Assembly: GCA_965215005.1 (NCBI GenBank) | Contig: CBDCCZ010000061.1 | Coordinates: forward strand, 123,055 to 187,054 | Reading direction: 5' to 3' | Length of the DNA: 64,000 nt | Source of the DNA: Kofleriaceae bacterium | GTDB taxonomy: Bacteria; Myxococcota_A; Polyangia; Haliangiales; Haliangiaceae | Shown: in pieces, positions 43,096 through 59,663 of the stretch | Position numbering within the stretch: position 1 is the stretch's first letter | Layout of the letters: each line of letters opens with the position of its first letter | Notes under the pieces: generated by a model | Database searches by the model: none | What the model saw: the letters and a program-made list of their open reading frames with translations, nothing else | Told to the model about the DNA's origin: nothing | Translations under genes and position numbers: made by a program

Positions 43096-43118
43096 GATGT
43101 AGCTCCTCGAGGGCGCGC

Positions 43119-44468
43119 TCAGGCGCCCGCAAACGGGGTCTTCGGGCCAGAAAGATGACCTGCCGAAGCAGGCCGCGACACCGGCGCGCCATCGCGTTGC
43201 GCGCGATCGCCGGCGACGATCGCGGCGACATCGATGCCAAGCGTGCTGCTCACTTGCCCGAGCAACGCCGCCACCACCGCCGGATAGGCGCTGGCGTAGG
43301 CCGGCAAGGTGCGGCCGTCGCCGCCATCGACCAAATTGACCTCTTTGACTTCAAGGCGCTGCGCCGCCTGGGCGACGGTTCCGAAGATGTCTTCGAGGTT
43401 TTGCAGGACGTACATGTCCATCGCGCTGCCACCCGAGTCGCGCCACGCTTTGGCGATGACCTCGAGCGACTCGCTCATCGCCTCACCATCGGTGAAGATG
43501 CGCGCTGCATCTCCCGCGGCGCGCAGCTCACGCACGCGCCGCGCCACCTCCGCTGGGATGGTGACATCGGCCGCGAGTCGCAGTTGCTCGAGCTCGCCGC
43601 GAATGCGCTGCAGCTCCTGCTCAGCGCTCGCTCGCGCCTCTTGCGCCGCGGCGATGGCCCGTTCCTCTTCCGACTTGGCCTCGGCCTCGAGCTCCGCGCG
43701 AATCTGCCGCAACTCGTTCAGCTTGCGGTGCACGTTGGCCTGCGCGCGGGTGTGGGCGACGGTGCCGCGCGCGTCGGCGGCGGCCTCTGCCTCAGCCGCG
43801 GTGCGCACCGCATCGGACTCGGCGACCTCCGCCTCGCGCAGCACCTCGGCAATGCGCTTGCGGCCGATGCTTTCGAGGTAGTTGCGCTCGTCGGTGACGT
43901 GCTGAATCTTCAGCGTGTCGAGGTGAAGCCCGAGCTTCTCGAGATCTTGCTCGGCTTCCTCGGCAAGCGTCTCGGCGAACTTGAGCCGGTCTTCATTGAC
44001 CTCTTCGGGCGTGAGCGTGGCCAAAACCCCGCGCAGATGCCCTTCGAGGGTTTCTTTGGCAACCCTGGCGATCTCATTGCGGCCATGACCTAGAAACCGT
44101 TCGATGGCGTTGCCGATCTTGGTCGGATCCGATGAAACTTTCACGTTGGCGATGGCGTGAAGGTTCAGCGGAATGCCGCCCCGCGAGTACGCGCCTTGTA
44201 CCGTCATAGCCACCGAAATCAGTGACATGTCCATTCGCTCCACCGTCTCGATGGCGGGAATCTTGAAAGCCCTGCCGCCGAAGACGACGCGAAAGCCGAC
44301 CGACCTGCCGTCGGGCAACACGTGCTGGCGCCCGGAGAAGATGAGGATCTCGTTGGGCCGACAGATATACATCAGGCGCTTGATGATGGTGACGAGCATC
44401 ATCAAAGCTGCCAACACGATCACCGGGATGACGAGTAGCAGCGGTGACTCTTGCAGTAGCATTTCCAT
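43119..44468 (-). CDS. Flotillin/SPFH-domain protein (paralog)
   Basis: ETLEGHLRGVLATLTPEEVNEDR, LKIQHVTD, EA repeats; AAGGAG RBS. Confidence 0.92.
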   Translation of the reverse strand: MEMLLQESPLLLVIPVIVLAALMMLVTIIKRLMYICRPNEILIFSGRQHVLPDGRSVGFRVVFGGRAFKIPAIETVERMDMSLISVAMTVQGAYSRGGIPLNLHAIANVKVSSDPTKIGNAIERFLGHGRNEIARVAKETLEGHLRGVLATLTPEEVNEDRLKFAETLAEEAEQDLEKLGLHLDTLKIQHVTDERNYLESIGRKRIAEVLREAEVAESDAVRTAAEAEAAADARGTVAHTRAQANVHRKLNELRQIRAELEAEAKSEEERAIAAAQEARASAEQELQRIRGELEQLRLAADVTIPAEVARRVRELRAAGDAARIFTDGEAMSESLEVIAKAWRDSGGSAMDMYVLQNLEDIFGTVAQAAQRLEVKEVNLVDGGDGRTLPAYASAYPAVVAALLGQVSSTLGIDVAAIVAGDRAQRDGAPVSRPASAGHLSGPKTPFAGA

Positions 44469-44479
44469 GTTCATCTCCT

Positions 44480-45079
44480 TCACAGCTGCGGGGCGCGCAG
44501 CTTGTCGGTGTTGGTGATCAGCGCGTGACCGCGGTCGTTGGTGCCGTAGACGAGCACCGAGTCTTTGACGCAAAACAGCGTTTCTTCGTCGGTATCGGCA
44601 AACAGCTCGATCACCCGCCCGCGCACATCGAGGCGGACCTTGCCGGTCTTGCCAGGCCCTACCGCGATCACGACCTTGGCCGTAGCGCCCACGAAGTCGT
44701 CTGCGCTGATCGCGCTATCACTTTGACTACGGCCCGCGCGACGCAGCGCAAGCACGACGCCAACACCAGCCAAGTAGCCTATGGCGATTGCCACCATCGC
44801 CGTGAGGAGCTCGCTAGCGAGGGTTCCCGTGACGGTGAACAGCAATCCCGCGAGACCGCCGAACGCGAGGAAGAACACCCAAAACCGCAGCGAACCCACC
44901 GGAAACCAGCCATAGACGTCAAAGCCCGCCTCCGCTTGCTCGGCATCCACCTCCGCGGCGTCGACGTCAGCGGCATCGACGTCTGTGTCGACCTCGGCAT
45001 CATGGTCCCCTCCCATCAGCAGCGACGCGATCAGCAGCGTGCCGCCGACGGCGAGCGCCACCAAGTAAATCGTCAACAT
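44480..45079 (-). CDS. NfeD-like membrane protein with C-terminal OB fold
   Basis: Three hydrophobic segments and an acidic loop; 'DFVGATAKVVIAV...GKVRL'; canonical position upstream of flotillins. Confidence 0.85.
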   Translation of the reverse strand: MLTIYLVALAVGGTLLIASLLMGGDHDAEVDTDVDAADVDAAEVDAEQAEAGFDVYGWFPVGSLRFWVFFLAFGGLAGLLFTVTGTLASELLTAMVAIAIGYLAGVGVVLALRRAGRSQSDSAISADDFVGATAKVVIAVGPGKTGKVRLDVRGRVIELFADTDEETLFCVKDSVLVYGTNDRGHALITNTDKLRAPQL

Positions 45080-45237: not shown

Positions 45238-45276
45238 GTGCCTAAGCCCAATACCGCATTGCGATATCATGCAGCA

Positions 45277-46560
45277 ATGCAGCGTATCGCAGCAGCTCGC
45301 GCCGTGGATCAGCTGCTAGCGGCATACTTCGGCAATCCCTTCGCGCGCACCGCCGCCGAGGTGCGCCGGGCGGAGCGCGTGGCAACCACTCTCGACCTCG
45401 ACGCCACGATCACCGCCCTCCTCGATCAAGGCCAGCTCGACCGCGCCAAGGCGCTGCTGCTAGCGATGCAACATCGCGCGGCGATCGCCAATCCTACCCT
45501 CGCCCCCCTGCTCGCTCTGCTATCCACCGCCACCGCCAAGCGCCTGCCACGGCCGCTGCGCGACTACGCGCGCATCGCGTTGGCAGCGGGCCGCTGCTAT
45601 CGCGTGCTCGACCGCATTCACGGCGATTCGGCCGCCAACAACCGCGCCCGCCGCGACACCTGGGCCGCGTGTTTTGGCGACTCGCTTCGCCACACGCTCG
45701 AGCTCGAACGCGTCATTCGCGATCACGACGTGCTGCTACTCGGTGAGACCGGTACCGGCAAAGAGCTCTTTGCCCGGGCGATCGTCGCCGCCACCCCCGG
45801 CGACAGTCGCGGCGCCCCCGCTCCGAGCGCAGCTCTCAACGCAGCGGCGCTGCCCGACGCCCTGGTCGAAAGCGAGCTCTTTGGCCATTCGAAAGGCGCC
45901 TTCACCGGGGCCGCGGAGAACCGCATTGGCCGCTTGCGCTCCGCCCATGGCGGCACATTCTTTCTCGATGAGGTCGGCGACTTGCCGTCGACCACGCAGG
46001 TCAAGCTGCTACGCGTCATCGAGACCAACGAGGTCTACCCACTCGGCTCCGATACGCCCCATACAGTCGATGTTCGCTACGTCGCGGCGACTCACAAAGA
46101 GCTCGAGACGCTGGTCGAAGAGGGCTCGTTTCGCCGCGATCTGCTCGAGCGCCTGGCCGGAAACGTCATCCGCACCCCGGCGCTGCGCGAGCGTCCCGAA
46201 GACATTCCTGCCATTGCGATGGCGTTCGTCGCCGACTACACCACCGGCTCGGCAGCGGAGCACGTCCACGCTTGGCTCACCACCGATGAGGTCCGCCGAT
46301 ACGCCTGGCCGGGCAACGTGCGCGAGCTGCAAAACGTGCTGCGCAATCTGCTCCTGGGTCTCCCGGCGCGTCCTGCCGCCGCCGCCGCCGCCGCCGAAGC
46401 CTCCGCGACCGTGCCCGCGATCGTCATCGAAGGCCGCGCCAGCCTCCGAATGGCCACCGATTGGTACTTGCGCCACGTACTGGCCAACGTCGATGGCAAC
46501 TACAGCCGCGCTGCGCGAATCCTCGGCATTGACCGCTCGACGGTCAAACGCCGCTGCTGA
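45277..46560 (+). CDS. Sigma-54-dependent enhancer-binding protein (AAA+ plus Fis-type HTH)
   Basis: GETGTGKE, ESELFGHSKGAFTGA, FLDEVG, WPGNVREL, AARILGIDRST. Confidence 0.93.
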   Translation: MQRIAAARAVDQLLAAYFGNPFARTAAEVRRAERVATTLDLDATITALLDQGQLDRAKALLLAMQHRAAIANPTLAPLLALLSTATAKRLPRPLRDYARIALAAGRCYRVLDRIHGDSAANNRARRDTWAACFGDSLRHTLELERVIRDHDVLLLGETGTGKELFARAIVAATPGDSRGAPAPSAALNAAALPDALVESELFGHSKGAFTGAAENRIGRLRSAHGGTFFLDEVGDLPSTTQVKLLRVIETNEVYPLGSDTPHTVDVRYVAATHKELETLVEEGSFRRDLLERLAGNVIRTPALRERPEDIPAIAMAFVADYTTGSAAEHVHAWLTTDEVRRYAWPGNVRELQNVLRNLLLGLPARPAAAAAAAEASATVPAIVIEGRASLRMATDWYLRHVLANVDGNYSRAARILGIDRSTVKRRC

Positions 46561-46600
46561 CCCGGATTTCTTCTTGAATCGGCGCTTGTTAAAAGGTCCT

Positions 46601-48466
46601 TCACAGCGACACGTCGAGGCGGCGATCGGCACCGGCCCGCGTCAACAGATAGGCCAGAAGTCCCAACAGAACCACCGCAATCGCTATATTGGCGGCTGCG
46701 CCCAGCGAGGTGCCGACGGGTGAGACGCCAGCGGCTCCGACCAACCCCGCCACGGCAACCCCCGCAAGCCCTTCGCCGGCGACCAGGCCAGAGCCGAGCA
46801 ACACGCCGCCATCGATAGCAGGAACGCGACCGCGGCGGCGCCACTCGACCCACCCGCGCACGCAGCCGCCGACGAAGATCGGCAGCATCGCCGACAACGG
46901 CAAATACAAGCCGATGGCGAACGCCAAGCCACTGACGCCGGCGAGCATGGCGGCCACCGCGAGGCCAGCGCCGAGCAGCAGCTGCTGCCACGGCAAGGTT
47001 CCGTCGAGAGTGCCTTCGACCAACGTAGCGATTAGGGTTGCTTGCGGCGCCGGCAGCTCCGTGGACCCGAATTGGTAGGCACTGCCGAGAAACAACAGCG
47101 TGCCCGCCACCGCCCAACAAGAGGTCATCGCGCCGATGAACTGCCCGAGCTGTTGCCGCGCGGGCGTGGCGCCCACCAGCCGTCCGGTCTTGAGATCTTG
47201 CGAGGTATCGCCGGCGCTAGAGGCGGCAATCGCAACGATCGCGCCCACGCATAGCACCGCGACCTTGGCGCCAGGCATGGTCCATCCCGCGGCCGCGAAA
47301 ATGGCGCCAACCGCCAAGATAGTGACGATGGTGACGCCGGAGGTGGGCTGGGAGGAGGTGCCTACAATGCCGGCGATGCGGCTCATGACGGCCACGAAGA
47401 TGATCCCGCACACGCCGACCGCGGCGCCGGTGACCATCCGCTGCAGCGCCGATAGCTCGCCCGTCACCCCCGGAACGAACATCACCACCGCCACCACCGT
47501 CATGATGATGGCTACCACTACCCAGCCCGGCAAATCGCGGTCGATGCGCTCGCTGCTGCCGTGCTCGCCGGGGCGAAAGCTCGCGGCCACGGCGACAAAC
47601 GATTGCACCATCGCCGGCAGTCCGCGAATGACCGTGGCGATGCCCGCGGCGGTCACCGCGCCGGCGCCGATGTAACGGACATAGCTGGCCCACACCGCAT
47701 CTGCGTCCATGGCGGCAATCGGCATCGAACCTGGCGGCACGATTTCCTCGATGCGCGCGCCGAGCATGGTGATGAGCGGAATCAGGACCACGGCCGCGAG
47801 CAGGCTGCCGGCCACCAACACGCCCGATTGGCGATAGCCGAGAATGTAGCCAACGCCGATCAATGCCGGCGCCAGCTCGAGGCTGAGCATCGCATTGGGG
47901 AGCCCCGGAAGCGCCGCGCTCACGCTGCCCGGAACCCAGCCGGTGAGCTCGACGACGAGCTTGATGGCGACGCCTACGCCGAGCCCGATGCCGATCCATA
48001 CGCCGCCGCGAGCGCGGCTCTCGCCGTGCCCCGCCGACTGCAGCACCTCGGCGCAGGCCGTGCCTTCCGGATACGCCAGCTCATCGGCAGAACGGACGAT
48101 GAGCAGATGACGCAGGGGAATCATCGCCGCCACGCCGAGAAGACCGCCGAGCAGCGTGAGCACGACGACCTGCCCATAGGAGGGCGGCGTGCCCCAGAGA
48201 TACAACGCTGGCAGCGTGAAGATGGCGCCCGTGGCCAGCGACGTCGACGCCGAGCCGATGGTTTGCGATAGGTTGATCTCGAGCAAGCTGGCGCGGACGC
48301 GCAGCGCTCGCAGCACCGCCACGGTCATGATAGCGACCGGAATAGACGTCGAGACGGTCATGCCGACGCGCAGCCCGAGGTAGGCGTTGGCAGCGCCGAA
48401 CAAAATGCCGAATACCACGCCCGCAGCGATTGCCCGCGGCGTCCACTCTGCCGTCGACGGATTCAC
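46601..48466 (-). CDS. OPT/YSL-family oligopeptide transporter
   Basis: AANAYLGLRVGMTVSTSIP, LEINLSQTIGSA, YPEGTACAEVL, QDLKTGRLVGATP..QQ, APQATL, FAIGLYLP. Confidence 0.93.
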   Translation of the reverse strand: MNPSTAEWTPRAIAAGVVFGILFGAANAYLGLRVGMTVSTSIPVAIMTVAVLRALRVRASLLEINLSQTIGSASTSLATGAIFTLPALYLWGTPPSYGQVVVLTLLGGLLGVAAMIPLRHLLIVRSADELAYPEGTACAEVLQSAGHGESRARGGVWIGIGLGVGVAIKLVVELTGWVPGSVSAALPGLPNAMLSLELAPALIGVGYILGYRQSGVLVAGSLLAAVVLIPLITMLGARIEEIVPPGSMPIAAMDADAVWASYVRYIGAGAVTAAGIATVIRGLPAMVQSFVAVAASFRPGEHGSSERIDRDLPGWVVVAIIMTVVAVVMFVPGVTGELSALQRMVTGAAVGVCGIIFVAVMSRIAGIVGTSSQPTSGVTIVTILAVGAIFAAAGWTMPGAKVAVLCVGAIVAIAASSAGDTSQDLKTGRLVGATPARQQLGQFIGAMTSCWAVAGTLLFLGSAYQFGSTELPAPQATLIATLVEGTLDGTLPWQQLLLGAGLAVAAMLAGVSGLAFAIGLYLPLSAMLPIFVGGCVRGWVEWRRRGRVPAIDGGVLLGSGLVAGEGLAGVAVAGLVGAAGVSPVGTSLGAAANIAIAVVLLGLLAYLLTRAGADRRLDVSL

Positions 48467-49329
48467 GGCGCCGACGATGACACAGGCGGCACCGCGAAGC
48501 GCTCGCCGTTGGCCAGGATGTGCAGCGCAATGCCCCGAGCCGACCGTTTGCCGGCATTCTCGTGCATCGCCGCGGCCGTTGCATCGAAGATCATCAGCCA
48601 GCCATCGCCCACGGCTTGCACGGTGCCATCGGGGCGAAACCATGCTGCGGTGCCCTCATCGACACCGATCCCGATGTAGCCGGGATTCTCGAGCAGCACC
48701 GACAACAGCCGATTCTGCCGCCGTCGCGCGACAAAATGTTGATCGATGATGACGCTGTCGGGCGCCAGTCCCAAGCCGCGCGAGACGGCGATGTTGCCGC
48801 TCTTGAGGGTGTCGACGTCGCCGTCACCGGTGAGCATGATGTGGCTTTGACAAGCGGTGCCGGCGCTGGTGCCGCCAACCACGCCGCCGCGTTGCTTCAT
48901 CGCCACCAATGCCTCGAGAAGCGGCGTGCCGACGAGACGGCTGGTGATGCGGCGTTGATCGCCGCCGGAAAACCAGACGCCGGTGGCGCCGGCAACCGCA
49001 GCGATGTTGGTTGCGCGCAGCGCGTCGCGGCGGTCGTCGACGTGAACGACCTCTACCTTGCGCGCGCCGTACTTGCGCAATAGCTCGATGTAATACGCGC
49101 CGGTGTCGCGGCTATCGCCGCTGGCCAGGGGCATGATGACGAAGCGTCCCTCGGCGCCGCCGCCGAGCTCGACGAATAGCCGCATCGCGGCCTCGGGCTT
49201 GGCGCCGCCGCCGATGAGCACCAGGTGCCCGCCTGGCTGCCCGTGCTCGGAGGCAGGCGTTGCAGCGGTGCCCGTGGTTCCGCAACCGAGGACCAGCATC
49301 AGCGCTGCGAGATGCAGTCTAGCGATCAT
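48463..49329 (-). CDS. Cyanophycinase (peptidase S51), lipoprotein
   Basis: VLGC lipobox; LIGGG, GGDQ, GTSAG (Ser), IDQHFVARRRQNRL (His plus Arg cluster), GVDEGT (Glu). Confidence 0.88.
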   Translation of the reverse strand: MIARLHLAALMLVLGCGTTGTAATPASEHGQPGGHLVLIGGGAKPEAAMRLFVELGGGAEGRFVIMPLASGDSRDTGAYYIELLRKYGARKVEVVHVDDRRDALRATNIAAVAGATGVWFSGGDQRRITSRLVGTPLLEALVAMKQRGGVVGGTSAGTACQSHIMLTGDGDVDTLKSGNIAVSRGLGLAPDSVIIDQHFVARRRQNRLLSVLLENPGYIGIGVDEGTAAWFRPDGTVQAVGDGWLMIFDATAAAMHENAGKRSARGIALHILANGERFAVPPVSSSAP

Positions 49330-51655
49330 ATCGAACCCCCACGCGCAGCTCCAAGGGTCGCTCGAGTGCGCTCACGCTCTCAAAGAACCGGGCGCGCTCG
49401 CGAAACCCAATGATGGTATCGCTGTTGAGCAAGTTGCGGCCTTCGAGCCAAATACGCCAACGCCCGCCCGGCAGCGGCAAGTCACGCGCAATGCGTGCGT
49501 CGACGAGATGTCGACTGGGATAGCGATAGCCACCGCGGCCGGCTTCATCGAAGACGTACACCCGCGGCGCCACCGTTGGCGCAATGCGAACCACGCGCGA
49601 ATAATAGGCACCGGAACGGTAGCGATAGTCGACATCGAGGTCGAGCGCGAGCGGCGCCCGCCAGCTCGCGCCGAGGCGGCCATCGATCGCATCGTAGCCG
49701 GGCATGCGTCCGTCGCTGCGGATGGTGCCGCTGGGATCGCGCCACTCCATGGATAGATCCCCATCGCTATCGAGGTTGCCGCGGTCGCTGGTGAAGGCGA
49801 GCTCGCCACTAACGACGATTCGACTTCCGAGCTCGCCGCGCGCCTCGAGGACCGCGCGATGCACGCGCCGGCGCGCGCCCGGCGGATTGCCGAGGCGATA
49901 GCGCGGAGTCGCTCCGGCGCGCAAGTCGTAGAACTCGATGGTTTCTTCGGCGCCTTGCGGCGTGGTGAAGGTCTCCTGTCCAAGCTCGTACGAGCCTTCG
50001 GCATCGGCGCTGCTCGCCAGCGCGAAGCCGGCATCGTAAAGCCCGAGTAGGTGGCGATAGCGGCGGTATTCGTAGTGCAGCGACAGCTCGAGACCATGGT
50101 CGGGAAGACCGGTTGCGGCGCCCACGAGCAGCCGATCCACCGAGGGATGCTCGAGCTCGTCATCGACGCTGCCAACGAACGCAGCAAACTGCTGCCGGCG
50201 CGTCCACTCTTCGGCGGCTAGTGGCGGAACCGGTGCCGTCGGATCGCCGGTCCAGTCCCAGTATTCCAGCGGCGAGAATGCCGCGCCTTCTTTGGCGCGC
50301 ACGTACATGCTTGGCTCGAGATGACGATAGTGGCGCCCGAGCTGCCCAAACACGCGCGTTGCGTGGTTGCGACTGAGAGCGGCCGTCATTGCCAGCCGCG
50401 GTGCCAGCGTATTGGTGCGCCAGACCTCGGGACCACCGGCAAAGCGGCCGCGAAAGTGCTCGTAGCGCAGTCCTGGGGTCACGGTGACGCGATCGCCAAG
50501 CTCGACGTCGTCTTCGAGATACGCAGCGAAGCTGGCTTGCGCGAGCTTGGCGTGCAGCTCATCGCCGCGATCGCTGGAAAACAGCTCCCAACTGGCGCGC
50601 ACGTCTTCATCGATAGACCGCAGCGGCGTGCCGCTGGAGCCCTCGGCGGCGAGGTCTACGAACGTGAAGCCACCGTTGCGAGTCTCGTCTTCCTCGCGGC
50701 TCACGACCTCTCCGGCGATGCCGAGGGTGACGGTGTGGGCATCGGCCGCGGTCAAAACGCCATCGAGAAATCCCGAGAGGTGGGCATCGACGCGGTGCCG
50801 CCTGCTGCGGCGGCGCATGGTGAACGGATAGTTGCCCCAGCGTTCGTAGGTATCGAGGTTGTAGTGCCCCGGCTCGGCGACACCGCCAGCCGCCCGCCAG
50901 TCATCGCGCCCGCTCCACCAATCATAGGTGGCTGCCGCCTCGAGTCGCGGCGCGAGCTGGCGGCGCGCCGAAAGCACCGCCACCACATCATCGCGATAGC
51001 GCTGCCGAGCCGCGCTCGGCAAATACCACGACGACAACCCGGCGTTGTCGATGAACAGGCCGTCGTAGCGGGCGCCCGCGGTGACCTCGGTGACCGGATC
51101 CGGTGCCCAGCCGAGGTTGACGGTGTAGCGCGGCGCCACCGACTCTTCGGCGATGGCGGCGCCGAGCGCGCGCATCGACTCGCGCGCATCGACCGCCTGC
51201 ACGTAGTACCAGCCCTGCTGCGCCCCCAGGGGACCATTTGCGGCAGCGGTGGTGACGACGCCATAGCGGCGCGTGCCGCCGATGATGTCGACCGGCAATG
51301 TCGATGGATAGCGCGCAAGCAAATCTGCGGCGTCGACATTGTTGAACGTGAGCGCACCGCCGGTCACGACGCTTTGCACCGACAACCGGTGGACATCGCC
51401 ACCGCGCGGCAGCAGCCAAGTGGGCGAGTCGTAGCCGAGGCCAAACCCTTCGCTGCTGGGCCGGGTTGCAAGCTCCGTCGACCAGCCACGCGCGGCGGCG
51501 CCCGCATACCCGCCCACGTCGATGCCATCAGCAGGCTCGTGACGCCAAAGCCGCGAGTACGCAACCGTCGCCGATAGCGTGTCGAGCTCATAGCGGTCGG
51601 CGTGCGCCGGCAGCGCCCACGACACCGCCGCCGTCACCACCAGCGCGCGATGCAT
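49319..51655 (-). CDS. TonB-dependent receptor-like outer-membrane beta-barrel
   Basis: Signal AHA; 'AAYLEDDVEL..RVTVTPGLRYE', 'LAPRL', 'GRNLLN', C-terminal 'LRVGVRY'. Confidence 0.8.
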   Translation of the reverse strand: MHRALVVTAAVSWALPAHADRYELDTLSATVAYSRLWRHEPADGIDVGGYAGAAARGWSTELATRPSSEGFGLGYDSPTWLLPRGGDVHRLSVQSVVTGGALTFNNVDAADLLARYPSTLPVDIIGGTRRYGVVTTAAANGPLGAQQGWYYVQAVDARESMRALGAAIAEESVAPRYTVNLGWAPDPVTEVTAGARYDGLFIDNAGLSSWYLPSAARQRYRDDVVAVLSARRQLAPRLEAAATYDWWSGRDDWRAAGGVAEPGHYNLDTYERWGNYPFTMRRRSRRHRVDAHLSGFLDGVLTAADAHTVTLGIAGEVVSREEDETRNGGFTFVDLAAEGSSGTPLRSIDEDVRASWELFSSDRGDELHAKLAQASFAAYLEDDVELGDRVTVTPGLRYEHFRGRFAGGPEVWRTNTLAPRLAMTAALSRNHATRVFGQLGRHYRHLEPSMYVRAKEGAAFSPLEYWDWTGDPTAPVPPLAAEEWTRRQQFAAFVGSVDDELEHPSVDRLLVGAATGLPDHGLELSLHYEYRRYRHLLGLYDAGFALASSADAEGSYELGQETFTTPQGAEETIEFYDLRAGATPRYRLGNPPGARRRVHRAVLEARGELGSRIVVSGELAFTSDRGNLDSDGDLSMEWRDPSGTIRSDGRMPGYDAIDGRLGASWRAPLALDLDVDYRYRSGAYYSRVVRIAPTVAPRVYVFDEAGRGGYRYPSRHLVDARIARDLPLPGGRWRIWLEGRNLLNSDTIIGFRERARFFESVSALERPLELRVGVRYDR

Positions 51656-51657
51656 CG

Positions 51658-52815
51658 TTAGCGATCCCGCAGATAGCGCTCGAGGGCGAGCGCGTTCATC
51701 GCCGCTCGCTGGGCGATGGTGTCGATGAGCAGAAACTCCTGGTCGGTGTGCATGGCACCGCCTTCGGGACCGACGCCGTCAAGGCAAACCGCGCCGAAAC
51801 GGGCGACCTCGTTGATGTCCCCCACGCCGGCGGTTCCAACGCCGTCGATGCGCATCCCGAGCTCGGAACCCGCGGCGACGTAGTAGCCGAGCAGCCTTCG
51901 CGACGCCTCGCTGGCGTGCATCGGCACGGTCTCGACACCGCCGTCTATGGTGAGTTTGGCGCCGCTCTCAGCACCGATGGCGGCGGCAGCCGCCTGCATC
52001 TCGGCGGCGACGCGCTCCCCCGCGGCGAGCTCCTCGAAACGCCACTCGAGCTCGCATTCGGCATGATCGGGAACCGAGCCGAGGTTACGCGGCGCCGACG
52101 AAACCAACCCACCGGCCGACACGGTGACACCGCCGATGCGCTGCTCGAGCCCCTCGGCGGCGACGACCAAGCGACACAGCGCCGTGAAGGCGTTCACGGC
52201 GCTATCATGGTCGATGCCAGCGTGTCCGCTCTTGCCGCTAGCAATCACGCGGGCGGCGCCGTAGCCTCTGCGCGCCACCACCACGTCGCCGCTAGCACGC
52301 GCTGCCTCGAACGAGAGCGCCAGCGTTGCCCCAGGCGCCGCCGCGCGCACCACTTCGATACCGGTGGGCGAGCCAACCTCTTCGTCACTGACCACCAGCC
52401 ACCGCGCACGCATGGTGTCGAGCACACCGCGCGCCGCCAGCAGCCGCAGCGTGAGCAGCCCGCACACCAGACCGCCTTTCATGTCGGCAACGCCGGGACC
52501 GTGCCAGCGCTCCACCCCGCGCTGGAGCCGCTGAAAGGGGTGCTCGGGCGTAAAGACGGTATCGACGTGGCCCATCATCAGCACGGTCGGCCCTGCGCCG
52601 TCTCGCTCCGCCAGAAGGTGCGAACGGTCGCCAGCCGAGATCGACTGCACCGCAAATCCCAGCGCCTCGAGCGGCGGCGCGAGCAGCGCCAAGCACCGCG
52701 CAACTCCGGCGGTATGAGTTGCGTGGCTGTTGATGTCGACGAGCTCGGCGAGCAGCTCGAGGTGCACAGCAAGCTCCTCGCGCGCGGCGGCAAGCAGGGC
52801 TGCTGCGCTCGTCAT
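51658..52815 (-). CDS. M20-family metallopeptidase (glutamate carboxypeptidase-like)
   Basis: GHVDTVF, GPGVADMKGG, SDEEVGS, FE, GHAG, MHTDQE; no signal peptide. Confidence 0.9.
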   Translation of the reverse strand: MTSAAALLAAAREELAVHLELLAELVDINSHATHTAGVARCLALLAPPLEALGFAVQSISAGDRSHLLAERDGAGPTVLMMGHVDTVFTPEHPFQRLQRGVERWHGPGVADMKGGLVCGLLTLRLLAARGVLDTMRARWLVVSDEEVGSPTGIEVVRAAAPGATLALSFEAARASGDVVVARRGYGAARVIASGKSGHAGIDHDSAVNAFTALCRLVVAAEGLEQRIGGVTVSAGGLVSSAPRNLGSVPDHAECELEWRFEELAAGERVAAEMQAAAAAIGAESGAKLTIDGGVETVPMHASEASRRLLGYYVAAGSELGMRIDGVGTAGVGDINEVARFGAVCLDGVGPEGGAMHTDQEFLLIDTIAQRAAMNALALERYLRDR

Positions 52816-54326
52816 TAGCGAACCTCGACATCGGCGGCCGAGCGCGGCGCCAGCGCGCAGTAGGTCTCGCCGCAAAACACCACGCCGGTGATTGAGGCCA
52901 CGGCGTCGTCTTCCGAAGGAATACCATCGTAGAGCAAGGTATCGATGCGCATCGTTTCCGTGCCATCGCTGACTTCATACGTATAGGGATCGAGCATTGG
53001 ATCGCTCACCCGCACGTCTTCGATGCGAACCAGCGAGCTCTGATAGGGAGCCAGCTCAGTGCCAACAGCGACCATATCCGCCATGGGCGCTCGCATGCCG
53101 GTGGTGCGCAGCGCGGTGACGTCAATCGTGTGGCGGGTGCGTATTACGATATACACGCCGGTTACGTCGATGACGTCTCCCACCGCCACCGGCGAGGGCG
53201 GGGAGCGCTGATCGACCAGATACACGCCCGACGCGGGGCCGCCGCGCGGATCTTGCGCAAACATATCGACGTTGCCATTCGCGTCGCGGTCGAGCGCGGT
53301 CACCACCAGCCCTGCAAGGTCGAGCTCAGTGCCTTCAGGCACGTCGCCGGCGTGGAGGTCGGCGACGTCCACACGACTCGAGTCGCCCTCGAGATCCTCG
53401 GCGCCGCGCGGGGCGATCGCGTAGTGCAGCGCATCGGCCTCGTCGAGGAAGAGATAGAGCGGTCCAGCGAGGCGCGAGAGCTGCAGGCCCGCGCTCCGCG
53501 GTGGGTCGTATAGCAGCGTCTCGACCAACAACGTGACGCCGTCGGGCGCTGCTTGGGCGGCGACCGACCAGGTGTAGTCATCGATCATTGGCTGCGCGAC
53601 CACCACATCTTCAATAGCGATGAAGCTGCTGTCCCATACCGACGGATCCACCGCGGTGAGCTCGAGCGTGGTCGCTACGGGCGTTGCGCTGCCGACCACC
53701 TCGATGGTGTCGTACTCAATCGTGGTGCGCCCGGCGCGCTCAAGGTAGCTGCCCGCGATTCGCACCACGTCGCCAATGGCGGCGGGATCGACGCCCACTT
53801 GCGCCATCGTCAGCTCGCGAACATCGCGCAGGTAGATCCCACTCTTCTCGCCGCCGCCCTCGTCTTGCGCAAAGAGGTTGGTGTAGTCGCGATCGCGATC
53901 GAGCGCGTAGACCACCAGCTCGAGCTCGACACGGGTGCCTTCTGGCACCTGCCCGGCCTGCACCGCCGCCGCACTGGTCTCGACCAGGCCTTGTACGGTG
54001 ACCGCAACGCTGCCGCGCGCATCGCGATAGCTGCAGGCGATATCAGCCGTTCCCGGCCGCTCCGCCACGAAGGTGGCCTCGGCCAACGTTCCCGGCGGCA
54101 TCTGGCTATCGAGCTCGCAGGTTGCCGCGGCGGTCACGTCGTCCGATGAGCCATCACCGTGAATTGCGCGCACCACCAACCGCACCTCCTCCCCCACGGC
54201 GGGCTCGAGCGAATCGGGGCTGGTGATGCTCAGGGAGACGAGGCCGGCGTCACCGCCGCCTGCACAGCTCCCCCATATGCCGATCACGCAGCCAATAGCC
54301 CAGCTCACGGTCGCTGTTGGTTTCAC
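52815..54326 (-). CDS. Putative lipoprotein: Ig-like domain plus two tandem OB-fold-like modules
   Basis: Hydrophobic leader ending WGSC; 'GDGSSDDVTAAA' Ig-like motif; two ~180-200-aa repeats each with VPEGT, ALDRD, FAQD..GG..SG[I/V]YL, GDV, IEDV, TLLYD, APR.A.D. Confidence 0.72.
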   Translation of the reverse strand: MKPTATVSWAIGCVIGIWGSCAGGGDAGLVSLSITSPDSLEPAVGEEVRLVVRAIHGDGSSDDVTAAATCELDSQMPPGTLAEATFVAERPGTADIACSYRDARGSVAVTVQGLVETSAAAVQAGQVPEGTRVELELVVYALDRDRDYTNLFAQDEGGGEKSGIYLRDVRELTMAQVGVDPAAIGDVVRIAGSYLERAGRTTIEYDTIEVVGSATPVATTLELTAVDPSVWDSSFIAIEDVVVAQPMIDDYTWSVAAQAAPDGVTLLVETLLYDPPRSAGLQLSRLAGPLYLFLDEADALHYAIAPRGAEDLEGDSSRVDVADLHAGDVPEGTELDLAGLVVTALDRDANGNVDMFAQDPRGGPASGVYLVDQRSPPSPVAVGDVIDVTGVYIVIRTRHTIDVTALRTTGMRAPMADMVAVGTELAPYQSSLVRIEDVRVSDPMLDPYTYEVSDGTETMRIDTLLYDGIPSEDDAVASITGVVFCGETYCALAPRSAADVEVR

Positions 54327-54345
54327 CGCTATGGCGTAGCAATCA

Positions 54346-54391
54346 TGAAACTGTTCTTGCAAGAACAAAATTCTGAGAAAATTTTATTTCA
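54346..54391. promoter_or_regulatory. Candidate RpiR operator region
   Basis: AT-rich; TGAAA-N6-TTGCA (54346-54361), AGAAA-N6-TTTCA (54376-54391) and perfect palindrome TGTTCTTGCAAGAACA (54352-54367). Confidence 0.55.
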
Positions 54392-54467
54392 CCGACACCG
54401 CGATGCGCGGCCTCACTTCCACGGCAATGCACATGTTCCTCGCCGCGGCAGCCAGCGCGGCGTATCG

Positions 54468-55352
54468 CTACGAGTCGCCGGCCTCGATGACGTCGTCAGC
54501 GCCGGCCGCTTCGAGCGCGCGCAGCTGCGCAAGAGCGCGGCGTTTATCCGTGAGCGCCAAGTCGGTGACGATGGCGTTTACGAGCAACAGCGTCGCCGAG
54601 ATGTTGTTGGTGAACAGGAGATTTTCGCCGCGGGCATACAACGTGGCGTGGGCGTGCTCGCGCAGCGGCGATGCAACCCCGTCGGTGATTGCGACCACAG
54701 CCAGACCGCGGCTCCGCGCCTGACGTGCCGCCGCCACGGTTTCGCGGCTGTAGGGCGGAAACGCGAACGCCCATACCGCCGCGCGCGCCGGCAATAGCGC
54801 GACCTGCTCGGGAAGCGAGAGGGTCTCACGGGCGAGATAGGCGCTGCGAATCCCAACCTGGCTGAGCGAGTAGGCCGCCATGCGCGCGCAGATCGAGCTC
54901 ACGCCAAGGCCCATGGTGCCCACGTGCACAGCGCCGCGCAGGCGGCGGCAGAGCTGCGCGAGCGCCGCGCGATCCACTTCGTCGACCGCCGCCCGCAAGT
55001 TGCGCAGCTCCGCCTCGGCGACCTCTTCGAGAGTGCCCGATGACGGGCGAGGCGGGCGGGCGGCAAAGCGCCGCGCCGGACTGAGATCGGCTTTGGCTTC
55101 GCCAGTGAGCGCTGCGCGAAGCTCGAGATAGCCGCTGTAGCCCACCTGTTTGGCAAAGCGCACCACGGTGGCTTCAGAGACGTCGGCCGCGCGCGCAAGC
55201 TCGTGCACCGACAGCCCAAAGGCGGTCGCCTGATGGGCCAAAAGATACTGCGCCACGCGCCGCTGCTGCGCGCTGAGCTGCGCAAATGCCAGCTCGATAG
55301 CCTGCCTCACTGCCGATTTACTGCTGCGCAAGAGCTTTACTTTCTGCCGCAC
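54468..55352 (-). CDS. RpiR/MurR-family transcriptional regulator (HTH plus SIS)
   Basis: LSAQQRRVAQYLL, ELARAADVSEATVVRFAKQVGYSGYLELR, FPPYSRET, VAITD..SPL; start approximate. Confidence 0.92.
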   Translation of the reverse strand: MRQKVKLLRSSKSAVRQAIELAFAQLSAQQRRVAQYLLAHQATAFGLSVHELARAADVSEATVVRFAKQVGYSGYLELRAALTGEAKADLSPARRFAARPPRPSSGTLEEVAEAELRNLRAAVDEVDRAALAQLCRRLRGAVHVGTMGLGVSSICARMAAYSLSQVGIRSAYLARETLSLPEQVALLPARAAVWAFAFPPYSRETVAAARQARSRGLAVVAITDGVASPLREHAHATLYARGENLLFTNNISATLLLVNAIVTDLALTDKRRALAQLRALEAAGADDVIEAGDS

Positions 55353-55462
55353 ACCGCGACCGGCCGCCAGAATATCCCGTGCGTTTGGCGATCGTGAAAT
55401 CGCGGACGGCACTCTTCGTGGCGATTTGCCACACGAGCGGCTGGGAATTGCCGCGGCGGCGC

Positions 55463-55921
55463 ATGGTACGCCTAGCAAGCAGCGTGGACGCCCTCGAAGT
55501 CATCGTCGACGAAACCTCCTACCTGGTGCCGATGAGCCGGGTAGTCGAGGTGGCGCTGCGAGTTTCCATCGAGCCTGCGGCCGAGCTACATCCGCCGGTG
55601 CTCGGCTTCGTGCGCTTTCGCGGCCAGCCGGTGCCAGCCATCGATCTCCGTCGCTGCCTCGGCCACCCGCCGCGTCCACCCAAGCTTTCGGATCGCTTCG
55701 TGCTCGTGCGAGTGCGCGACCGGATCGTCGCCCTCATCGTCGATGAGACGTGCGGCTTGCGCTCGGTCTCAGAGCTGCGCGGCGTGCCGGTGAGCGCCAC
55801 GCACCTGGCTGGAGCCGCCCTCACCGACGAGGGCATTACGTACCTCGCCGAGCTCGATGCAGCGCTTTCACTCGAGGACGAAAAACGCATCGACGCAGCG
55901 CTGGCGGCCGAGGATCGATGA
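55463..55921 (+). CDS. cheW: CheW-like coupling protein
   Basis: VLGFVRFRGQPVPAIDLR, VALIVDE. Confidence 0.85.
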   Translation: MVRLASSVDALEVIVDETSYLVPMSRVVEVALRVSIEPAAELHPPVLGFVRFRGQPVPAIDLRRCLGHPPRPPKLSDRFVLVRVRDRIVALIVDETCGLRSVSELRGVPVSATHLAGAALTDEGITYLAELDAALSLEDEKRIDAALAAEDR

Positions 55922-57261
55922 AGCGGTCAACCGCAGAGCTGGTCGATCCTGCGCTGCGCCACGCGCTGGTCGTGGCCCTCCACGAGCAACTCGGGCTCAG
56001 CCCGGCGACGTGCGAGATGCGCGCCACCGACGCGGCGCTGCGCCGCCTCGCTACCTTGCTATGTGGCGGCAACCTCGCGGCGCTGCTCGAGCGCACCCGC
56101 GCCGGCGATGCGGTGGCCCTGGCCGCCTTCGCCGATGAGCTCACGGTGGCTGAAAGCTACTTCTTTCGCCATCCGCCTCACTTCGACGCTTTGCGACAGC
56201 TGCTCTCAAACGCGCGCGCCGAGGGACGCCGCGTACGCTTGTGGTCGGCCGGATGCGCGGGCGGCGAAGAAGCGTATTCGATGGCGATCAGCGCGTGCGA
56301 GGTGTTTGGCAACGCCGCCGCCGTCGAGGTCGTTGCCACCGATCTATCGCCGGCGAGCCTAACCCGCGCCCGCGCCGGCGTGTATCGACCGTGGGCGCTG
56401 CGAGGCACAGACGAGGCGTTTCGCCAGCGGTGGTTTCGTCCTACGCAGAGCGGCTTGATGATCTGCGATGAGGTGCGCGCGCTGGTGACGTTTGCCGTCG
56501 GCAACCTCTTGCGCGCCAACGAGGCTCCGCCTGCGATCGACATCGCGTTCTGCCGCAACGTGCTCATCTACTTCGATGACCACGGCATCGCGGCGATTGG
56601 TGACTCACTTGCCACCGCGCTCGAGCCAGGCGGCTGGCTCGTGCTCGGTCCTGCCGACCCGCTGCTGCGTCGCGCGGAGCTCGCCGTCGACAGCACCTAT
56701 GGCTTTATCGGCTATCGCCGTCGCAATGCCGCGGCTATCGCGCCGCAGCGCGAGCGACCGCGCCGCCCTGCCGTCAGCCGTCCGCGGCAATCGCGTCGCC
56801 CTCGCACTCCGAGCGCAGCGTCGCCTCCTGCGGCACCACCCGAGCTCGACGCCACGCTCTTGGCCAGCGCTCGACGCGCAGCGGATCGCGGCGAGCTCGC
56901 CGAGGCGCGCGTGTTAGTGGACCGCGTGTTGGCCGCTGCACCCGTGCCAGCCGCGTACGTGTTGCGCGCCGAGCTCGCCAGTGCCGTTGGTGATTACGAA
57001 GCGGTCGAGCTCGATGCCCGGCGGGCGTTGCTGCTCGATCGCCAGCTGATCATCGCCCAGGTCCTACTCGCTACCGCCCACGCCAATCGCGGCAATCGCG
57101 CCGCTGCGGCCCGGGGGCTTGCGCTCGCGGTCGCCGAGCTCGCGGCGTTGCCGCCCGAGGCGCCGATTCGCGGTGCAACCGCCTGCGCCGCCGACGTCTT
57201 GAGCCATTGTCGGCAGCTGGCGCGTGCCCTCAGGCTCGGCAACGAGCGGGAGAGTTCATGA
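55918..57261 (+). CDS. cheR: CheR methyltransferase with C-terminal TPR (WspC-like)
   Basis: TVAESYFFRHP, WSAGCAGGEEAYS, ATDLS, FCRNVLIYF; TPR 'RRALLLDR'. Confidence 0.9.
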   Translation: MKRSTAELVDPALRHALVVALHEQLGLSPATCEMRATDAALRRLATLLCGGNLAALLERTRAGDAVALAAFADELTVAESYFFRHPPHFDALRQLLSNARAEGRRVRLWSAGCAGGEEAYSMAISACEVFGNAAAVEVVATDLSPASLTRARAGVYRPWALRGTDEAFRQRWFRPTQSGLMICDEVRALVTFAVGNLLRANEAPPAIDIAFCRNVLIYFDDHGIAAIGDSLATALEPGGWLVLGPADPLLRRAELAVDSTYGFIGYRRRNAAAIAPQRERPRRPAVSRPRQSRRPRTPSAASPPAAPPELDATLLASARRAADRGELAEARVLVDRVLAAAPVPAAYVLRAELASAVGDYEAVELDARRALLLDRQLIIAQVLLATAHANRGNRAAAARGLALAVAELAALPPEAPIRGATACAADVLSHCRQLARALRLGNERESS

Positions 57262-57803
57262 GCAGGCACCGCTGGACCGCGGAGGAGCAGGCGATTCTCA
57301 TGGCCCGCAGTCGTGCTCTTGCCACCGCGCCCGCGCCGCCGCAACGACGCGCTTCCATGGTCGTGGTGCGGGTGACCGTGAGCGGCGAGCGCTACGCCAT
57401 CGATGCGACCGCGGTGCGCCACGTAGGCGCGCTGCGGCGAATTACGCCGCTGCCATTTTCGCCCCCAGAGGTCGCAGGGCTCATCGCTCATCAAGGCCAG
57501 GTGTTGCCCGCGTTCCACCTGCGCGCGCTCCTAGACCTGCCGCTGTCGGCGCTTCCCGAGCACGGCCGCGCCGTCTTTGTCGGTCGCACCGGCCCGGAGC
57601 TCGCGCTGGTGGTCGACACCGTGACGGCAACCGAGCGCCTCGCGCTCGACGAGCTCACCCTGCCTCCGCAAGCGCTGAGCTCCCGCGCCCGCGAGCTCAT
57701 CGCCGGAATCGACCCCAGCGGCGTTGCGGTGCTCGGCGCCGAGGCGCTGCTGTCGAGCCCCCGACTCATCGTCGACATCGAACCCGCAGAGAGGCCTACG
57801 TGA
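57258..57803 (+). CDS. cheW: Second CheW-like protein (WspD-like)
   Basis: ILMARSRALA N-terminus, GERYAI, ITPLPFSPPEVAGL, LALVVD. Confidence 0.87.
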   Translation: MSRHRWTAEEQAILMARSRALATAPAPPQRRASMVVVRVTVSGERYAIDATAVRHVGALRRITPLPFSPPEVAGLIAHQGQVLPAFHLRALLDLPLSALPEHGRAVFVGRTGPELALVVDTVTATERLALDELTLPPQALSSRARELIAGIDPSGVAVLGAEALLSSPRLIVDIEPAERPT

Positions 57804-59656
57804 CGGTTAGCAACAAGCTCTACACTGGCTTTGCCGTGGTCATCGCACTCATTCTGGCGATGACGCTCGCGCAAGTGCGGCAAGCGCGGCTCATCGACGC
57901 CGAGCTCGACCGGCTGTACGAACGCGGCGTGGTTGGCGCGGAAGCGCTCGGAGAAGCCACCGAGAAGCTGCAATCGATCCGCGCGCTGACGTTCCACCAC
58001 GTTGCCACGCGCGATAGCGATGTCGAGACCCGCCTCGAGCTGCAGATCGAAACCGAAGAAAAAGAGCTGCTCGAGGCGCTCGACCGCGTCGACGCGGTCT
58101 TGCCCGTAGAAGATGGCCGCCGCGGCAAGCTGCAGCGCATTCGCGAGGATTATCAGCAGCTCGCCCAGCGACGCGGCGAGGAGGTGCTATCGGTAAGTCG
58201 TACCCGCAGCGCGACGCCGCCGATCGCGCCCACACAAGCGGAGGAAGACTCCACTGCCGCCGCGTTGCGGGCGATGGAAGAGCGCACGGGACCGCTGATG
58301 CAGCAGGTTGGCGCGAGCCTCGAAGAGCTGATCAAGGCCCACGTCGGCTTCAATCGCAAGACCTACGAAGATGCGCGGGAAGCGCTGGCGCAGTCCACGG
58401 CGGTGGTCGTGCTCGGCAGCATCTTGGCGACTGTCGTGGCATTGGTCGTGGCGCTGCTGCTATCGAGATCGATCTCCACCCGGCTTCGTCACCTCACCCG
58501 CACTGCCAAAGAGATCTCCGCCGGCGAGCTCACGCTGCGCGCCGCTGCCGCCGGCGAAGACGACATCGCCCATCTCGCGCGAGCCTTCAACGACATGACG
58601 GGAGAGCTGGCACGACGCGTCGAGGAGCAGCATGCGCAAGCCGCTGAGCAGGAGAGCGAACGGCAGAAGCTCGCAACAGCGGTGGCAAGCTACGCCAGCA
58701 TCGTCGAGCGGGTGGCCCGCGGCGATCTCACCGCCCAAGTCACCGTGGTCGGCGACGCCGGCATGGCCAACTTAGGGACCAACCTCGACGTCATGGTCAA
58801 AGCCCTGCGGACGATGACGCTTCGCACGCACGAGGCGGTCGGCGCTCTCACCACCGCCACCGCCGAGATCCTCACCACGGTGCAGGAGCATGCCACCAGC
58901 GCCAACGAGTCGGCGTCTGCGGTGGCCGAGACCGTCGCGACCGTCGATGAGGTCACTCAGTCCGCGCGTCGGGTCGCTGACGAAGCCGGTAGCGTGGTGG
59001 AGGGCGCGCGCCAGACACTCGAGGAGTCGAGTGTCGGCCGGCAAGCGGTCGACCGCAGCGTCGACGCGATGAACGACGTGCGCCGCCAGATGGACTCGAT
59101 CGGCGAGCGCATCTTGGCGCTCTCGGAGCAAACCCAGGCCGTCGGGCAGATCATCACCACGGTCAACGAGCTGGCTGAACAGTCCAACATGCTGGCTCTC
59201 AACGCATCGATCGAGGCCGCTCGCGCTGGCGAAGAGGGCCGCGGGTTCGCCATCGTCGCTCAAGAAATTCGCTCGCTGGCGGATCAATCCAAAGACGCAA
59301 CCGCGCAGGTGCGCCGGATTCTCGGCGAGATTCAGCGCTCGACCGGAGAGGCGGTGCTGGTGACCGAGCAAGGCGCCAAAGCGGTGCGCGGCGCCGTGGA
59401 TGCGGTAACCGACGTCGGCGAGAAGATCACCATTCTGAGCGATACGCTTGCCGAGTCGGCGGACGCGGCGGAGCACATTCTCACGGCCTCCGAGCAGCAG
59501 GTGCTGGGAGTGGGGCAAATCTCGCAAGCGATGCAGTCCATCAATGAAGCATCGCGGCAAACCGTGGACGGCACCCGGCAGATCGATGGCGCCGCGCGCG
59601 ACTTGAGCCGGCTGAGCGGCGATTTGCGCGACGCCGCGGCGCAGTACCGCACGTGA
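57800..59656 (+). CDS. Methyl-accepting chemotaxis protein (four-helix-bundle sensor, HAMP domains)
   Basis: Two TMs, HAMP 'DDIAHLARAFNDM', signalling hairpin LAEQSNMLALNASIEAARAGEEGRGFAIVAQEIRSLA. Confidence 0.95.
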   Translation: MTVSNKLYTGFAVVIALILAMTLAQVRQARLIDAELDRLYERGVVGAEALGEATEKLQSIRALTFHHVATRDSDVETRLELQIETEEKELLEALDRVDAVLPVEDGRRGKLQRIREDYQQLAQRRGEEVLSVSRTRSATPPIAPTQAEEDSTAAALRAMEERTGPLMQQVGASLEELIKAHVGFNRKTYEDAREALAQSTAVVVLGSILATVVALVVALLLSRSISTRLRHLTRTAKEISAGELTLRAAAAGEDDIAHLARAFNDMTGELARRVEEQHAQAAEQESERQKLATAVASYASIVERVARGDLTAQVTVVGDAGMANLGTNLDVMVKALRTMTLRTHEAVGALTTATAEILTTVQEHATSANESASAVAETVATVDEVTQSARRVADEAGSVVEGARQTLEESSVGRQAVDRSVDAMNDVRRQMDSIGERILALSEQTQAVGQIITTVNELAEQSNMLALNASIEAARAGEEGRGFAIVAQEIRSLADQSKDATAQVRRILGEIQRSTGEAVLVTEQGAKAVRGAVDAVTDVGEKITILSDTLAESADAAEHILTASEQQVLGVGQISQAMQSINEASRQTVDGTRQIDGAARDLSRLSGDLRDAAAQYRT

Positions 59657-59663
59657 GCGACTC

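Follow-up and report, generated by a model that had tools for sequence, protein, structure and literature searches.

A "cyanophycin utilization locus" containing cyanophycinases, iadA, and a transporter was described for strain L21-Spi-D4 (Ben Hania et al. 2017, as cited in PMC10206079 and PMC6243061), and according to PMC10206079, 45 of 52 clustered cases are without cphA1, and the dipeptidase of Firmicutes and Bacteroidota is called undiscovered. Exported cyanophycinases without a synthetase have since been proposed in "Ca. Sulfomarinibacter" (PMC8528874, 2021), and CphZ/AotO, together with AotJQMP, is assigned the uptake and splitting of beta-Asp-Arg in nonproducers in PMC9974463. Here, we describe a related locus in a 64,000-nucleotide stretch of a Kofleriaceae genome (contig CBDCCZ010000061.1, positions 123,055 to 187,054; hereafter, the window), in which six minus-strand genes spanning 46601..55352 encode an RpiR regulator (rpiR), a lipoprotein, an M20 peptidase, an outer-membrane barrel, an S51 peptidase, and an OPT transporter. 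We consider these genes to form a conserved operon whose probable function is the scavenging of cyanophycin made by other cells, and the substrate is, quite probably, cyanophycin or beta-Asp-Arg.

Like the L21-Spi-D4 locus and the cyanophycinase-iadA/iaaA clusters of PMC10206079, the window locus combines a cyanophycinase with a transporter in the absence of cphA, consistent with scavenging of polymer from outside. Unlike the L21-Spi-D4 locus, it has M20 in place of IadA/IaaA, an OPT inner-membrane carrier, an RpiR operator, a plug-less barrel with an OB-fold lipoprotein and no SusD, and a myxobacterial host. Neither iadA nor iaaA lies in the cluster, and the locus probably resembles a cyanophycin utilization locus in operation but falls outside strict membership, just as its receptor, on account of the plug, falls outside the TonB-dependent transporters (TBDTs). 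No SusC or SusD family hit, and hence no SusC/SusD pair of the kind that defines polysaccharide utilization loci, was obtained in the window locus. "Ca. Sulfomarinibacter" likewise has a Sec-exported cyanophycinase and no synthetase, and genomes of "Ca. Sulfomarinibacteraceae" are among the loci closest to the window; the consulted part of PMC8528874 names the enzyme and an isoaspartyl dipeptidase rather than a receptor-M20-transporter locus, and the loci of this family use a full Oar-type TBDT and YfcC, unlike the window. The CphZ/AotO-AotJQMP system also features dedicated beta-Asp-Arg uptake and splitting and the recruitment of a deacylase scaffold, an activity that in the window is proposed; it differs in employing an AstE/AspA protein instead of M20 and an ABC transporter instead of OPT.

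The idea of cyanophycin scavenging, which an earlier, preliminary description of this sequence presented as uncharacterized, was therefore already in print, both as the cyanophycin utilization locus (2017) and as exported cyanophycinases without synthetase (2021). What is new here is the 22-strand barrel that has lost its plug, the OB-fold lipoprotein found, among the loci examined, only beside this barrel type, the M20 peptidase in the position of an isoaspartyl dipeptidase, and OPT in place of YfcC. Our literature searches, whose coverage excludes most subscription journals, turned up no account of such a gene set and none of an M20 protein that hydrolyzes beta-Asp-Arg, and the term "M20" is absent from the available sections of PMC10206079 and PMC9974463. 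The general locus concept is not new, and cyanophycin recycling would now extend to myxobacteria and many sediment Acidobacteriota.

Under the mechanism that we propose, the CphB-type S51 enzyme, which is predicted to be exported, would cut cyanophycin to beta-Asp-Arg, the plug-less barrel would let the dipeptide or short oligomers cross the outer membrane, OPT would import the dipeptide over the inner membrane, and M20 would split it to Asp and Arg; a second, CphE-like S51 protein encoded elsewhere in the genome (G000; 6.2 Mb, 92.8% complete) could make the first cuts outside. The preliminary description had envisaged binding, outer-membrane import, depolymerization, inner-membrane import, and dipeptide cleavage, in that order. 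Scavenging of cyanophycin or beta-Asp-Arg is well supported by active-site residues, fold, conserved context, arginine-catabolism neighbors, and the finding of no cphA, but import of the polymer before its cleavage is doubtful, and entry of short products is likelier.

The S51 protein scores 181.5 against TIGR02069 (cutoff, 126.6), which places it in that family, and contains the motifs GGDQ, GTSAG, DQH-x3-R-x-R-x2-R, and DE, with S155, H198, and E225 as the catalytic triad. The pocket residues of Synechocystis CphB (Q101, D172, Q173, R178, R180, and R183, as given in the accessible part of PMC3235067) correspond to Q125, D196, Q197, R202, R204, and R207 in the window protein, all six being retained; across 181 aligned S51 domains, Q125, D196, R204, and R207 occur in 181 and R202 in 180, and the arginine cluster lies outside the patterns that were used to search for S51 loci. 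The AlphaFold2 (AF2) model (pLDDT of 91) has TM scores of 0.78 to 0.80 to CphB structures, versus 0.47 to 0.62 to PepE structures. Fold, Ser-His-Glu triad, and Gln/Asp/Gln/Arg3 pocket are shared with CphB (PDB 3en0 and 7uqw), pseudo-CphB (7uqv), and CphE; unlike CphB, the window protein has an N-terminal lipoprotein-type signal (VLGC, judged by eye), GGGxKP rather than GGAEDK, no Asp202, and membership in a clade of its own. In a quick tree, this exported clade (69 rows; SH-aLRT of 95) neighbors cphA-linked CphB, with the CphE-like proteins falling elsewhere, and the nearest relatives of the window S51 come from Myxococcota. The CphB-type pattern of triad plus arginine cluster claimed in the preliminary description is thereby borne out, the lipoprotein-type signal agrees with export of the enzyme, and the lack of a cyanophycin synthetase gene in the window extends to a genome-wide check in which no cphA was found in G000 (with the completeness given above); cphA is present in 4 of 50 locus-bearing genomes, with none found in the other 46. 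A PepE-type dipeptidase identity was also considered and rejected, given a score of 19.5 against the PepE model (cutoff, 156) and a fold nearer to CphB.

The second S51 gene of G000 (C38:47204-47965; L028:9477-10556) encodes a CphE-like protein of 359 amino acids with a DSH motif, possibly a lipoprotein, and is convergent with an Opp-type ABC peptide transporter; CphE-like second S51 genes also occur within four loci (L055, L066, L136, and L173). A relative has a 790-codon frame (L024:9588-11957, minus strand) in which an IadA-like part precedes a canonical CphB; the frame lies immediately ahead of cphA and may represent an IadA-CphB fusion; L025 resembles this arrangement, and L027 has the IadA-like and CphB parts separate.

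Gene content was scored by tblastn or HMM scans in 166 loci, one of them a duplicate. The set comprises the 80 top-ranking of 155 genome loci, the 80 top-ranking of 481 metagenome loci, and six regions taken from relatives. Searches by tblastn with the window proteins recovered the barrel in 67 loci, M20 in 47, the lipoprotein in 6, and OPT in 6 (for RpiR, see Table 1). Among the 63 well-covered loci, which extend at least 5 kb to either side, a receptor is present in 49, YfcC in 43, M20 in 38, RpiR in 26, GntR in 16, and OPT in 3, with SusD in 3 distant ones; OPT never occurs with YfcC, nor RpiR with GntR, and a regulator, a receptor, an M20 or IadA/IaaA, and a transporter occur together in 31. 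Four other myxobacterial loci (L029, L030, L050, and L215) contain the complete set of six window genes, the last of these loci having been located through the barrel; a further locus (L110) has the window gene set with a PepT-like M20, and L031 ends within rpiR. A barrel search of 147 genomes of the order gave four matches besides G000, one of them previously unseen and carrying the whole gene set, and a close S51 was present in 1 of 40 sampled relatives, such that the locus is rare and patchy. For 10 of the 15 barrel homologues, the longest contig has the same length as that of an S51 homologue, which again ties the barrel to S51. The wider module of regulator, outer-membrane receptor, S51, M20, and YfcC or OPT recurs in Acidobacteriota. 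This gene-neighborhood survey had been set as a test beforehand, and the set proves to be conserved at both levels, the full and the wider.

Two further arrangements were observed. Eight loci (L131, L133 to L136, L146, L150, and L173) share the order PepT-like M20, S51, YfcC (absent in L173), type IX secretion system (T9SS) cargo, RpiR, receptor, large protein without a Pfam match, and PorV, to which L136 and L173 add a second S51, constituting a type IX secretion version of the locus. In Archangium loci (L032, L033, L039, L046, L047, and L066), S51 is paired with an amidohydrolase-3 gene and an unannotated open reading frame (ORF) family, M20 and OPT being present only in L066; three of these genomes contain cphA and an IadA-like gene elsewhere. 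Cultured carriers of related loci include Archangium gephyra (L039) and Acanthopleuribacter pedis (L075).

Genes adjoining the sister loci bear on the substrate. An astA-like gene lies between rpiR and the lipoprotein gene in L215, astA-like and astD genes (the latter over cutoff) lie behind rpiR in L050, and in L031, astA-like, astD-like, and glutamate dehydrogenase (gdh) genes are divergent from the operon, whose first gene is of the argD/astC type; all of these astA-like proteins score below the NCBIfam cutoffs. L077 and L078 have the order iadA-S51-rocD, with iadA and rocD both over cutoff. Arginine-catabolism genes and iadA in these five sister loci support an Asp-Arg substrate. In total, six sister loci contain iadA or iaaA, and iaaA lies within L038, L131, L134, and L187. 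G000 itself has a stand-alone astA-like gene (C38:98596-99423; L203) that is 58% identical to the L050 copy.

The outer-membrane barrel scores 26.6 against PF00593, just below the cutoff of 27, and its BLAST alignment to the 900- to 950-residue Oar-type receptors of the Acidobacteriota loci begins near residue 135. In our alignment A2, the CarboxypepD domain and nearly all of the plug are lost from all 16 members of the window family (the window protein and 15 homologues of 763 to 829 amino acids), in which a short N-terminal stretch is conserved and the first loop carries an insertion; the segment preceding the barrel is about 70 residues in the window protein, versus about 215 in Oar-type relatives. 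The AF2 model (pLDDT of 86) has 22 strands over residues 90 to 777, whereas residues 20 to 89, where model confidence is low, form no folded plug; its fold matches the TBDTs FusA and YddB (Foldseek TM score of 0.56); a PDB sequence search with the barrel alignment gave no match. An assembly artifact as the source of the plug loss was rejected, the 15 homologues lacking the plug likewise. The protein thus retains the 22-strand barrel of TBDTs without the folded N-terminal plug and TonB box, and G000 encodes TonB-like proteins. Plug-less "Type S" Bacteroides transporters favor short substrates, according to bioRxiv 10.1101/2025.11.13.688124. Theirs is likewise a barrel without a plug, linked to short-substrate import, and it differs from the window barrel, which has Oar-type ancestry, a peptide rather than glycan context, an N-terminal remnant of about 70 residues, and an OB-fold lipoprotein partner. 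Because the plug is lost and plug-less Bacteroides transporters favor short substrates, passage of dipeptides or short oligomers suggests itself over energized import of polymer, and we see about an even chance that short products cross the barrel without an input of energy. Of the TonB-dependent-like, polymer-importing receptor in the preliminary description, the TBDT fold stands, but no canonical plug exists, and TonB-driven import before cleavage is doubtful.

The lipoprotein, which matched no Pfam family, is acidic (80 D+E versus 31 K+R) and has four homologues in which the signal Cys and the repeat are conserved (alignment A3); atlas searches led to OB and Big_2 clusters at 0.80 to 0.87, to be read as leads. 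We tentatively view it as a surface binder or lid; the binding role that had been assigned to it is plausible. The OPT protein belongs to TIGR00733 (288.9; cutoff, 182.5) and is a reasonably likely dipeptide importer.

The locus peptidase is an M20 protein, with PF01546 and PF07687 over cutoff and no signal peptide, and hence lies outside the families of CphZ (AstE/AspA), IadA (M38), and IaaA (Ntn-hydrolase). Its closest solved structure is carboxypeptidase G2 (CPG2), with which it shares the metal ligands and a counterpart of Arg288 but not one of Arg324, which we take to bind a Glu side chain in CPG2 (a review on this point proved ambiguous). Three separate M20 lineages adjoin this S51 clade, all of them without the Arg324 equivalent, which CPG2 and two unlinked M20s (L201 and L202) keep; a Glu stands one residue before the lost position in five of the six myxobacterial M20 copies and in L215 too. 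To judge from the sequences, the lost Arg324 and the preceding Glu would suit a basic C-terminal residue. Neither IadA nor PF01112 members were found in G000, which encodes three main AstE/AspA-family proteins, one of which was compared with PDB and matched no entry named CphZ; in a phylum-wide M20 search in which four candidates per genome were scored, 2 of 400 genomes had a match at 1e-60, neither next to S51. That this M20 is a beta-Asp-Arg hydrolase, standing where isoaspartyl dipeptidases stand elsewhere, has in our estimation about an even chance of being correct. The preliminary description had given it the dipeptide-cleaving step, of which the family assignment is secure, but cleavage is only plausible and competes with a role in arginine catabolism.

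The upstream regions of the RpiR loci contain tandem copies of a TGAAA-N6-TTTCA palindrome that repeat every 30 bp. With an operator matrix trained only on 22 Acidobacteriota loci, the window site ranks first in the 6.2-Mb genome at 37.0, the next tandem site scoring 20.4, although the AT-richness of the site within a GC-rich genome inflates such scores; matching sites precede the operons of L029, L030, and L031, L215 has a similar box pair with a 29-bp period, and 37 of 38 upstream controls from GntR loci score below 5. The operator scan detected no second tandem operator at the CphE-like S51 gene or the astA-like gene of G000, and a sigma-70 promoter and terminator scan gave nothing beyond chance level. 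The operon is likely repressed by RpiR. The SIS loop reads FPPYSRET in the window regulator (like 3sho), versus SSSGSTKE in the solved regulator 4ivn, a difference that hints at a nonsugar ligand.

Several observations weigh against the scavenging of cyanophycin as outlined above. The window S51 has GGGAKP for the GGAEDK loop of CphB and DEGT without Asp202, and the exported clade in the 181-domain alignment carries GGGxKP and is mostly without Asp202; the GGAEDK loop is missing from CphE-like proteins as well. No astB was found in a search of G000. A small plug could hide in the low-confidence N terminus of the barrel model. A hand tally does favor M20 as a stand-in for IadA/IaaA, with IadA or a strong IaaA hit in 9 of 13 genomes without a locus M20 versus 9 of 37 with one, but the cut (E value of <1e-90) was chosen after seeing the data, and the genomes are incomplete and related; within loci, the exclusivity of M20 and IadA/IaaA is not significant (36 of the 63 with M20 only, 3 with IadA/IaaA only, 2 with both, and 22 with neither), and a PF01112 member is encoded in 44 of the 50 genomes. 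Finally, GntR-type loci bring in further genes (CapA-like, M28, M14, racemase-like, and amidohydrolase) for which cyanophycin offers no explanation, and among the well-covered loci, CapA-like genes occur in 13, M14 in 13, M28 in 10, amidohydrolase-3 in 9, and racemase-like genes in 9.

Three other readings were considered. The locus might scavenge cyanophycin with M20 serving arginine catabolism, as a desuccinylase or deacylase at an AstE-like step, and another, unrecognized enzyme splitting beta-Asp-Arg, as might be argued from the best NCBIfam match of M20, PRK07338 (218.9, below the cutoff of 357), presumably an M20 found in ast operons, from the astA-like genes in L031, L050, and L215, and from the joint presence of IaaA and M20 in L131 and L134; we judge this unlikely, as only 4 of the 20 locus genomes searched gave an astB hit (no Acidobacteriota genome in that sample did, nor did G000) and the changes at and before Arg324 also speak against it. 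More broadly, the locus might digest other beta-aspartyl-branched or D-amino-acid peptides from necromass, cyanophycin being at most one substrate. The altered S51 loop and Asp202 position, the promiscuity of IadA/IaaA as partners, and the recurring accessory genes favor such a breadth, and the CapA, M28, M14, and racemase-like neighbors in GntR-type loci do point to D-amino-acid or further peptide processing there; these genes, however, are mostly confined to GntR-type loci and absent from the window locus, the S51 pocket is complete, and genes of arginine catabolism turn up repeatedly in the clade to which the window locus belongs, which leaves the broader reading improbable. In six GntR-type loci (L084, L087, L096, L101, L106, and L124), CapA/PGA_cap, M28, M14, and an OSBS/N-acylamino-acid-racemase-like gene surround S51.

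A MurR-type muropeptide recycling locus, conceivable from the RpiR/MurR family of the regulator and from a neighbor family with weak, below-cutoff hits to DgcA and Ala-Glu epimerase, we reject as extremely improbable, since no anmK, murQ, nagZ, amidase, or NlpC/P60 is among the 48 recurring neighbor families annotated, the SIS loop is unlike that of 4ivn, and S51 is CphB-like. Returning to cyanophycin scavenging, its parts can be joined into a bolder and distinctly doubtful proposition, namely, that M20s, recruited three times beside the S51 clade, may add a fourth class, so far undescribed, to the beta-Asp-Arg hydrolases (with the PepT-like type perhaps being the enzyme said to be missing in Bacteroidota), that OPT and YfcC may both be beta-Asp-Arg importers, that myxobacteria may have turned a TBDT into a plug-less, energy-independent dipeptide channel with a dedicated OB-fold lipoprotein, and that predators may harvest the nitrogen stores of their prey in this way.

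The features of the locus are collected in Table 1. Five co-oriented, tightly coupled genes downstream of the regulator had been reported in the preliminary description, and indeed all ORFs lie on the minus strand at the places given there, with all four junctions reading as reported (TAATG at 52815, a 2-nt gap at 51656-51657, an 11-nt overlap at 49319-49329, and GTGA at 48463-48466). GTG 55352 is a possible start of rpiR, and for the lipoprotein GTG 54326 is the most probable start, matching a 503-amino-acid database protein; the spacing between these two genes is about 140 bp, with the predicted operator inside it. The GC content of the locus is at the level of the whole window. A public contig, which may itself be the source of this DNA, covers 46401-55700 without a single mismatch.

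Table 1. Features of the putative cyanophycin-scavenging locus (window coordinates)
Feature	Position	Strand	Basis
RpiR/MurR-family regulator (HTH and SIS), likely operon repressor	54468..55352	-	PF01418 and PF01380 over cutoff; homologues in 39 of 166 loci
Predicted RpiR operator, two 16-bp TGAAA-N6-TTTCA-like boxes with 30-bp period	54346..54391	.	Matrix scan, rank 1 in genome
Acidic lipoprotein with predicted Ig-like domain and two tandem OB-type repeats; likely surface binding or lid protein	52815..54326	-	No Pfam hit; alignment A3
M20 metallopeptidase, carboxypeptidase-G2-like, without signal peptide; candidate beta-Asp-Arg hydrolase	51658..52815	-	PF01546/PF07687
Outer-membrane 22-strand beta-barrel of Oar-type TBDT descent, without CarboxypepD domain or canonical plug	49319..51655	-	Alignment A2, AF2 model
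CphB-type cyanophycinase, peptidase family S51, exported (predicted lipoprotein)	48463..49329	-	TIGR02069, residues, AF2 fold
OPT-family inner-membrane transporter, likely dipeptide importer	46601..48466	-	TIGR00733

The flanking genes are not conserved neighbors of the locus or form ordinary operons. A sigma-54 activator gene (45238-46560, plus strand) is convergent with the OPT gene, and beyond it (41809-45079, minus strand) lies an ordinary operon of a small membrane protein (NfeD-like by eye, with no Pfam hit) and two SPFH/flotillin genes. On the other side, divergent from rpiR, is a chemosensory operon (55379-62827, plus strand) with CheW and CheR recognized by Pfam and further chemotaxis genes by eye.

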